Source: a virus
Length of the DNA: 11,199 bases
Direction: 5' to 3' (one strand)
IMG/VR virus record: IMGVR_UViG_3300009149_007415
Shown: in pieces, positions 9,550-9,622 of the stretch
Position numbering within the stretch: the first letter of the stretch is position 1
Layout of the letters: each line of letters opens with the position of its first letter
The notes under the pieces: model-generated
Told to the model about the DNA's origin: nothing
Database searches by the model: none
The model's input: only the letters and a program-made list of their open reading frames with translations
Program-made: the position numbers and the translations under genes

Positions 9550-9622
9550 GTCCGATTAGCTCAGTTGGCAGAGCGCAGGATTCTAGACCCGGAGGTCGTC
9601 GGTTCGAGCCCGACATCGGACG
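9550..9622 (+). tRNA. tRNA with anticodon CUA (amber-reading, suppressor-type); amino-acid identity undetermined
   Basis: The acceptor is a perfect 7-bp stem (GTCCGAT/ATCGGAC) with discriminator G. D-arm is GCTC-AGTTGGCA-GAGC. T-arm is GTCGG-TTCGAGC-CCGAC, and the variable loop is AGGTC. The 7-nt anticodon loop TTCTAGA has U33, anticodon CTA and a purine at 37. The anticodon stem is CAGGA/CCCGG, with only 3 Watson-Crick pairs plus A-G and A-C mismatches. The anticodon call relies on canonical numbering. Confidence 0.6.

Follow-up and report, generated by a model that had tools for sequence, protein, structure and literature searches.

We analyzed a stretch of 11,199 nucleotides (nt) from the IMG/VR virus record IMGVR_UViG_3300009149_007415, hereafter called the window. 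It encodes on its plus strand a transfer RNA (tRNA) at 9550..9622 that is of the amber suppressor type, as its anticodon CUA is the complement of the codon UAG. Upstream on the same strand lies a PTH2-like gene (8596..8967), composed of an ATG, five sense codons, an in-frame amber TAG as codon 7 (8614..8616) and a conserved domain of 116 codons. A further gene, encoding a basic helical protein named ORF129 (9134..9523, plus strand), is located between the PTH2-like gene and the tRNA. It is followed by a plus-strand hairpin with the sequence GGGGG-TGAAATT-CCCCC (9529..9545), which ends 4 nt before the 5' end of the tRNA.

ARAGORN predicted the tRNA at 9550-9623 (74 nt) with the anticodon CTA at position 34 (9583..9585) and labelled it 'Pyl', a label that reflects the anticodon only. 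In the covariance-model check proposed in the initial annotation, the Rfam tRNA family (RF00005) matched at 9550-9622 with 54.8 bits, above its gathering score of 29 (E 8.6e-10). The same tRNA sequence was found in an independent assembly (L001). The acceptor, D- and T-arms had initially been described as near-perfect, and all three could be read as completely Watson-Crick paired (7/7, 4/4 and 5/5 pairs, respectively), with the canonical tertiary bases U8, A14, G15-C48, G18G19, G26.A44, U33, U54U55C56 and A58 in place. The discriminator base is G73 (9622) and CCA is not encoded by the gene. The anticodon stem-loop CAGGA-UUCUAGA-CCCGG (9576..9592, plus strand) consists of C27-G43, A28.G42, G29-C41, G30-C40 and A31.C39 (9576-9580 with 9588-9592), i.e. 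three standard pairs out of the canonical five, as had been noted from the letters alone, and the two non-standard pairs flagged by Rfam are both within this stem. The mismatches are located at 9577/9591 (A28.G42) and 9580/9588 (A31.C39), and the loop carries a G37 at 9586. Two mismatches in the anticodon stem were seen in only 3 of 110 distinct tRNAs from these phages, and the stem-loop of the window was the weakest among the 26 CUA tRNAs of that set (+2.1 kcal/mol for the canonical structure).

Reading the PTH2-like gene from the ATG at 8596 gave MKDVFG-TAG-INQKLIVITRRDL..., and the frame following the TAG (8617-8967) matched Pfam family PF01981 with 42.5 bits against a cut-off of 23, from residue 4 onwards and over profile positions 2-112 of 115. 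Profile matches to solved Pth2 structures likewise began at residue 4 (1rzw, E 4.7e-7); in the Pth2 structure alignment the Lys of the archaeal 'GK' motif was aligned with a variable residue. No ATG, GTG or TTG start was found after the TAG in the 8617-8967 frame, and in assembly L001 the gene caller predicted no gene here. The initial annotation had tied the tRNA to a suppression hypothesis, for which the in-frame TAG in the adjoining PTH2-like gene provides a proposed client codon.

We compared 32 distinct orthologues of this gene, taken from IMG/VR loci, from five complete genomes of huge phages (462-735 kilobases, kb), from close relatives of the window and from the mycobacteriophages Catera and Myrna. 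All 32 had the same architecture, namely a start codon, 0-12 sense codons, a TAG and the domain, all in one frame; we call the part up to and including the TAG the head, and genes carrying it gated. Protein identity among the gated orthologues was as low as 38%. The stop codon of the head was TAG in 32 of 32 cases; TAA and TGA were never seen there, even though 69-81% of the long open reading frames (ORFs) end in TAA. The domain starts about 4 residues past the TAG, and the codons seen directly after it (ATT, GTT, GTA, CTT, ACT, ACA and AAC) are mostly non-start codons. The head reads ATG TAG GTG in Catera and GTG TAG GTG in Myrna. Scanning for the head architecture turned up 33 TAG cases, of which about 25 were PTH2 heads, against 9 for TAA and 3 for TGA. 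In the complete genome of LR756500 the PTH2-like gene was the sole gene with such a head; a second gene that seemed to be gated (position 255825) is in fact a normal ATP-grasp-like gene whose start is an internal Met.

The PTH2-like gene also serves as an insertion site. HNH/NUMOD homing endonucleases were found inserted in it after about residue 22 at six loci (L003 4192-4938; L018 ~3230; L021 ~1936; L027 ~3249; L036 ~3184; L041 ~724, minus strand). In each case the endonuclease continues the frame of a duplicated head, which has its own ATG-x-TAG, so the inserted endonuclease would be amber-gated as well. Insertion of homing endonucleases behind a duplicated amber head has thus happened repeatedly.

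In most loci with enough flanking sequence, a CUA tRNA was encoded on the same strand, no more than about 2 kb from the gated gene. The linkage also holds in Catera and Myrna, both of which are cultured mycobacteriophages. Near the PTH2 homologues of XacN1 and Lak-B1, which lack a TAG head, there was no CUA tRNA. The intervening ORF129 also belongs to the conserved arrangement, and homologues occupy the equivalent place in L034, LR756501, L038, L050 and LR756500. Its family comprises about 72 unannotated cluster representatives. Sequence searches of Pfam, PHROG and PDB gave no match for ORF129, its matches to uS10 being non-significant (E 0.18-0.85), and its AlphaFold model (predicted local distance difference test score, pLDDT, of 80) gave no fold match with E < 1.

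The hairpin in front of the tRNA is conserved as well. The 26-nt spacer in which it lies (9524-9549) is 100% identical between the window and the related locus L068, compared with 76.5% for nearby intergenic DNA. A stable hairpin was present 3-6 nt upstream of the CUA tRNA in most family members, Myrna and Catera included; beyond the window, examples are L021, L024, L026, L027, L029, L048, L063 and L066. The stems vary in sequence and not in position, and the loop is often UGAAAUU. Based on this conserved hairpin directly before a tRNA, we infer that the genes and the tRNA are co-transcribed and that ribonuclease P (RNase P) cuts just past the hairpin, so that the hairpin would probably form the 3' terminus of the mRNA upstream. 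A scan for sigma-70 promoters and terminators near the tRNA gave background levels. On the other side of the tRNA, an ORF of 89 amino acids (9639-9908, plus strand) lies just 3' of the gene in the window and is absent from the otherwise collinear loci L068-70, pointing to an insertion or a deletion at the tRNA 3' side.

The gated gene, ORF129, the hairpin and the CUA tRNA together form a conserved phage module of three or four parts. In our assessment the tRNA is probably an amber suppressor dedicated to the PTH2-like gene, on which it would open a translational gate, with read-through and charging deduced from the sequences. The genes and the tRNA would be transcribed together, RNase P would free the tRNA just past the hairpin, and host enzymes would add the CCA end and charge it. 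A ribosome with a peptide of 1-13 residues would then meet the UAG on the PTH2-like mRNA. Success of release factor 1 at this codon would yield a tiny peptide, and success of the charged CUA tRNA the complete PTH2-like protein. As the full protein would need the CUA tRNA, the hydrolase-like output would track suppressor activity, which amounts to a translational gate. We put forward only tentatively the more general idea that phages using the standard code, the huge AT-rich ones as well as the GC-rich cluster C mycobacteriophages, might possess a 'private codon' switch of this kind, in which a suppressor with a loosened arm (open 31.39, U32) mainly opens one amber gate on a gene for a tRNA-ester hydrolase and thereby couples its output to the supply of the tRNA or to release factor 1.

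Several points weigh against such a gate. In LR745206, LR756504 and LR756502, three complete genomes of huge phages, the TAG head is present and ARAGORN, also with relaxed settings, found no CUA tRNA within 4 kb; in LR745206 none was found in 100 kb that hold 25 other tRNAs. These three phages may encode the suppressor elsewhere or open the gate by some other means. In the mycobacteriophages the GTG right after the TAG has a well-spaced Shine-Dalgarno sequence (GGAGG/GAAGG), so the gene could start there without read-through. The predicted folding of the tRNA is unfavourable, too. The minimum-energy fold obtained with ViennaRNA lacks the anticodon stem and is not a cloverleaf, the canonical anticodon stem contributes 0 to -0.7 kcal/mol in the nearest-neighbour model, and a competing hairpin, G37ACC40/G45GUC48 (GACC/GGUC), is favoured by about 5 kcal/mol. 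As so little stability is predicted for the stem, tertiary contacts, modification or proteins must hold the fold together. What the phage gains from gating a Pth2-like enzyme is a matter of conjecture; candidate purposes are an output scaled to the cost of read-through, timing after maturation of the phage tRNA set and feedback on the suppressor. Finally, the phage of the window is visible over 43 kb only, and its late genes may be recoded.

This last point bears on an alternative that we consider unlikely, namely a phage-wide recoding of TAG similar to code 15, in which TAG-rich late genes would lie outside the window and the TAG of the PTH2-like gene would be one of many. Mixed-coding phages with Sup-tRNA(CUA) are well documented, and TAG is rare as a stop codon in the AT-rich genomes studied here, which has been proposed as a pre-condition for recoding (Borges et al., bioRxiv 10.1101/2021.08.26.457843). 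We assessed recoding by counting, for each stop codon, pairs of long segments in the same frame that were split by a single stop; a homology screen for in-frame TAG in the loci had been overwhelmed by spurious off-frame matches to genuine genes. The non-redundant related loci, 312 kb in all, had 6 pairs split by TAG, 17 by TAA and 12 by TGA, and in the complete 462-kb relative LR756500 (24% GC) the counts were 2, 46 and 12, respectively. Treating TAG as sense in LR756500 added less open-frame coverage than a control in which TGA was treated as sense. There is no general TAG recoding in LR756500 or in the 312 kb of related loci. The genes of the window itself read cleanly in the standard code and 3 of about 15 end in TAG, which also argues against recoding, as does the conservation of the TAG position across orthologues of 38-70% identity, which scattered recoding does not predict. 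LR756500 encodes one CUA tRNA among 26 tRNAs, plus a transfer-messenger RNA (LR756500.1, 94511-94921, minus strand; tag GNNAEMRMAA).

Phage Sup-tRNA(CUA) has been described from TAG-recoded crAss-like, Lak and other phages (Borges et al., 10.1101/2021.08.26.457843; Peters et al., PMC9523058). The TAG-recoded phages share with the arrangement described here the CUA tRNA, an in-frame TAG proposed to delay certain genes until the suppressor is at hand and the presumed charging by synthetases of the host. They differ in that TAG is scattered in many of their structural and lysis genes, whereas here we found one positionally conserved TAG in phages with the standard code.

The head might also be a mini-ORF, of the start-stop or bar-like type, with the domain starting after the TAG and the CUA tRNA unrelated to it. 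We regard this as quite improbable. Such a mini-ORF would regulate the gene via termination and re-initiation or via peptidyl-tRNA drop-off, and the GTG with its Shine-Dalgarno sequence in Catera and Myrna is in line with this, as are the rare start codon ATT after the TAG in most AT-rich members and the huge phages that have the head and no nearby CUA tRNA. Two-codon minigenes and Pth are, moreover, linked in lambda bar biology. A mini-ORF does not, however, explain why the head ends in TAG throughout when TAA is the prevailing stop, nor why many members have the non-start codons ACT, ACA, AAC, CTT, GTT or GTA following it. The upstream start is always in frame with the domain, and the CUA tRNA accompanies most gated genes and is absent beside ungated PTH2 genes, which again favours the suppressor.

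A further possibility is that the tRNA is decaying or non-functional, disabled by the two mismatches and G37, for which its nearly absent predicted stem stability, the minimum-energy fold other than a cloverleaf and the scarcity of G37 beside A36 (2 of 26 CUA tRNAs of the family) could be cited. The conservation of the arm makes this very improbable. Exact-pattern scans of IMG/VR for close relatives of the tRNA, with either the anticodon stem or the whole arm left free, found none, and the sole hit of a metagenome scan was an unrelated CUA tRNA whose stem is fully paired and which is not linked to a PTH2 gene. Close relatives of the window were located via the neighbouring ORF129. The locus L067 is about 99% identical to the window over 6538-9621, and its tRNA (3014-3089) has an identical arm, one changed base in the T-loop, A73 and an encoded CCA. 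At the loci L068-70 the tRNA differs from that of the window solely in having A73 for G73. The two tRNAs are thus identical in 72 of 73 positions, with all five odd positions kept, and their flanks are 77-90% identical. Between the window and L068 identity was 87.6% in the PTH2-like gene, 76.5% in intergenic DNA, 90.0% in ORF129 and 80.2% in a denV-like gene. The chance of one change or fewer in 73 nt at 16% divergence is about 4e-5. As the arm stayed unchanged while the flanks diverged by 10-23%, the mismatches are not recent damage. The same genomes also keep the TAG of the client gene and an unbroken frame around it, and all other stems and tertiary bases of the tRNA are perfect, which decay would not lead one to expect.

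More distant relatives allowed some dating of the individual mismatches. In L072/73, whose PTH2-like protein is about 52% identical to that of the window, the arm reads CCGGA-UUCUAAA-CUCGG, with A31.C39 and G73 kept, C28-G42 paired and A37 in the loop. Since it is common to the L072/73 clade, A31.C39 is old, and A28.G42 and G37 were added in the lineage of the window and kept since. A mismatch at 31.39, mostly C.C, was found in 10 of 24 stem-loops of the family. It was associated with U32 (Fisher p 1.7e-4, 26 stem-loops) and was commoner in the CUA tRNAs (8/26) than in the sense tRNAs of the same phages (8/84; p 0.02). A.G at 28.42 was also present in L036a. These recurrences in other family members likewise count against decay. 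G37 was also found in one of two CUA tRNAs arranged in tandem, 5 nt apart, in the 735-kb phage LR756501 (L048 6421-6574, LR756501.1), where a UUCUAGC loop with G37 is closed by a perfect stem and the other tRNA has the loop CUCUAAA. Orthologous CUA tRNAs are spread throughout a deep phage clade. The initial annotation had proposed that the mismatches reflect a recent change of the arm, for instance a recent derivation of the suppressor from a sense tRNA; this does not agree with the clade-wide orthologues or with an arm that is unchanged amid diverged flanks. From these comparisons, the mismatches would be kept by selection or tolerated as a trait of the lineage rather than reflect decay.

The initial annotation had also allowed for a wrong loop assignment, in which case an alternative fold with a canonical anticodon stem might have yielded a different anticodon. 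Alternative registers of the arm (an 8-nt loop, or no stem) were tried and rejected, as neither was better and neither gave a canonical stem. Indeed, none of the registers that were scored explicitly yielded a canonical stem or another anticodon. Across 24 distinct homologous stem-loops, 87.5% of cells were paired in the canonical register, with a covariation score of 0.82 compared with 0.17 or less for slid registers. CTA was invariant and the pairs 29-41 and 30-40 were unbroken in all 24. This comparative covariation supports the canonical register and thereby, together with the ARAGORN call, the CUA anticodon, so the suspected misassignment was not borne out. That a 9-nt loop should instead present another anticodon (UCU for AGA) or read the four-base codon UAGA is hardly credible, because the GenBank annotation tRNA-Arg(tct) of the Catera homologue and the A that usually follows the TAG (UCUA complements UAGA) are outweighed by a UCU register that leaves a two-mismatch stem in Catera, by the loss of pairing and covariation in slid registers and, for quadruplet decoding, by start, TAG and domain lying in one triplet frame in every orthologue.

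The tRNAs of the two mycobacteriophages have been annotated differently. Catera gene 154 (L063 3602-3675) is the tRNA-Arg(tct) just mentioned and Myrna gene 86 (L066 3463-3534) is a tRNA-Ser in GenBank, whereas ARAGORN reads CUA in each, and the CUA register pairs better in both. Both tRNAs are atypical. That of Catera has an 8-base-pair (bp) acceptor and a 3-bp D stem and scores below the Rfam tRNA threshold, and that of Myrna has a 6-bp anticodon stem and obtains its best score, below threshold, on the tRNA-Sec model. They share a UUCUAA(A/C) loop closed by C.C.

With regard to amino-acid identity, the nearest match to the body of the window tRNA was the tRNA-Lys(UUU) of an actinophage, in which the D and T arms are identical; the Lys-like signal rests largely on one actinophage tRNA that was chosen for its similarity. 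This is compatible with the Thr/Arg/Lys-like look that had been attributed to the D-arm. Among the CUA tRNAs, 26 of 32 were closest to another CUA tRNA, and none of the family was closest to a tRNA-Gln. In amber suppressors of E. coli the 31-39 pair decides between Lys (A31-U39) and Gln (C31-G39) charging (Fukunaga et al. 2006, PMC1483225). That work concerns the same position and compared Watson-Crick pairs, whereas here it is occupied by an A.C or C.C mismatch. The discriminator base varies among A, G and U within the family, even between near-identical relatives of the window, several of which carry A73, so G73 is indeed unable to settle the identity, as had been cautioned. Given the location of the TAG in a variable N-terminal tail, the inserted amino acid is probably unimportant, and this would explain the drift of the discriminator base.

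Two special classes of tRNA were considered and rejected. tRNA-Pyl has a 6-bp anticodon stem, a 3-nt variable loop and a small D-loop without G18G19, and is accompanied by pylS/pylBCD genes. The window tRNA has a canonical D-loop (AGUUGGCA) with G18G19, a 5-nt variable loop (AGGUC), an anticodon stem of five positions and a normal T-loop, and no Pyl-related Pfam match and no pyl genes were found among the window proteins. Its likeness to tRNA-Pyl is limited to the anticodon CUA. Bacterial initiator tRNAs, which would imply UAG as a start codon, are marked by a C1xA72 mismatch, A11-U24 and three G-C pairs at 29-31/39-41, whereas the window tRNA has a paired G1-C72, C11-G24 and an A at position 31. 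The in-frame start codon that invariably precedes the TAG argues for reading of UAG during elongation.

CUCUAAA is the classic loop of efficient suppressors according to the 'extended anticodon' rules (Yarus; Kleina et al., cited in PMC13092985), and a purine after the TAG is a favourable context for suppression. In both respects the family resembles laboratory amber suppressors, as 14 of the 26 distinct CUA tRNAs tabulated have CUCUAAA and 30 of the 31 tallied heads have a purine right after the TAG. The window tRNA is the opposite of an optimised suppressor, as its loop is UUCUAGA in place of one with A37 and A38, it has no A37 as a site for modification of the N6-isopentenyladenosine (i6A) type and its stem is destabilised. 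In the proposed mechanism the open 31.39 pair together with U32 would enlarge the anticodon loop to 9 nt. G37 would remove the A36-A37-A38 context for i6A-type modification, and for this reason we think that the window tRNA is probably a weak suppressor. Weak suppression would open the gate yet limit read-through of the TAG-terminated genes of the phage itself.

Shortened anticodon stems have been linked to stop-codon reading before. Anticodon stems of 4 bp ('unpinned'), a recurrent and apparently functional deviation, occur in 5.6% of bacterial tRNAs, are enriched among rare tRNAs, tRNA-Sup(UUA) being one example, and have been connected with stop-codon reading in bacteria and eukaryotes, while stems with three standard pairs make up 0.2% of the tRNAs surveyed (Fakih et al. 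2026, PMC13092985). The tested cases in that study concern top-unpinned tRNA-Trp(CCA) on the near-cognate UGA; bottom-unpinned stems were set aside and phages were not surveyed (PMC13092985). The window tRNA differs in being fully cognate to UAG, bottom-unpinned (31.39) and burdened with an additional internal A.G. It lies outside the 4-bp class because 28.42 is mismatched as well as 31.39 being open, and the tRNAs of L072/73, L011 and L003 fit this class.

The neighbourhood of the genes and the tRNA described above contains a number of further RNAs and proteins. A GOLLD RNA is located at 2737-3215 (plus strand; Rfam 157.3 bits, threshold 150) inside a phage tRNA array, with tRNA-Glu at 176 and tRNA-Leu at 4435 and 5256, and contains a tRNA-like insert at 2810-2879 (45.5 bits) whose acceptor stem is poorly paired. 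Between tRNA genes lie a radical-SAM-like protein (266-1285, plus strand; a weak match below the Pfam cut-off) and a homologue of SiaC-family regulatory phosphoproteins (1492-1875, plus strand; 4e-30). An 833-amino-acid homologue of the eukaryotic major vault protein (5464-7965, plus strand; MVP_shoulder 3e-28, Vault_3 1.8e-11) is conserved in related jumbo phages, and about 7 kb downstream of it a 570-amino-acid protein with a faint TROVE (Ro60/TEP1) match is encoded in assembly L001 (19358-21070). Vault-like and Ro-like ribonucleoprotein components thus adjoin the GOLLD RNA and tRNAs. In the tRNA array of a 323-kb relative (L004), ARAGORN reported tRNA-like genes with anticodons of 4 or 2 nt (ttga, gaca, aa) at 884-958, 4445-4539 and 7547-7618.

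Iyer et al. (2021, PMC7824862) interpreted the PTH2 of jumbo phages as a factor that rescues ribosomes when tRNAs have been damaged. This protein and the 'peptidyl tRNA hydrolase' of cluster C mycobacteriophages belong to the same family (PF01981, tblastn), and the amber head and the linkage to a CUA tRNA are not mentioned by Iyer et al. (PMC7824862). None of the papers that we found describes a PTH2 gene gated by an amber codon and linked to a CUA tRNA, in a search whose coverage was incomplete and which leaves novelty unproven. A practical consequence concerns annotation, since gene callers overlook the gated gene or place its start wrongly, and public records carry the tRNA under the wrong label (Pyl, Arg or Ser). 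The presence of the module in the cultured phages Catera (Bxz1-like) and Myrna makes it directly testable.

Phage suppressor tRNAs have mostly been discussed with respect to genome-wide changes of the code, whereas here one tRNA would serve one codon of one gene. This suggests that use at a single gate is simpler than recoding, and it may also be older. The loosened anticodon arm further indicates that selection can maintain such a stem in a stop-reading tRNA, extending the work on short stems to phages and to bottom-unpinned stems. If the proposed gate is real, these phages would provide a natural orthogonal codon used as a regulatory switch and a compact model of how a stop codon first gains a sense meaning, and a gate of one codon could seed the evolution of genome-wide TAG recoding.

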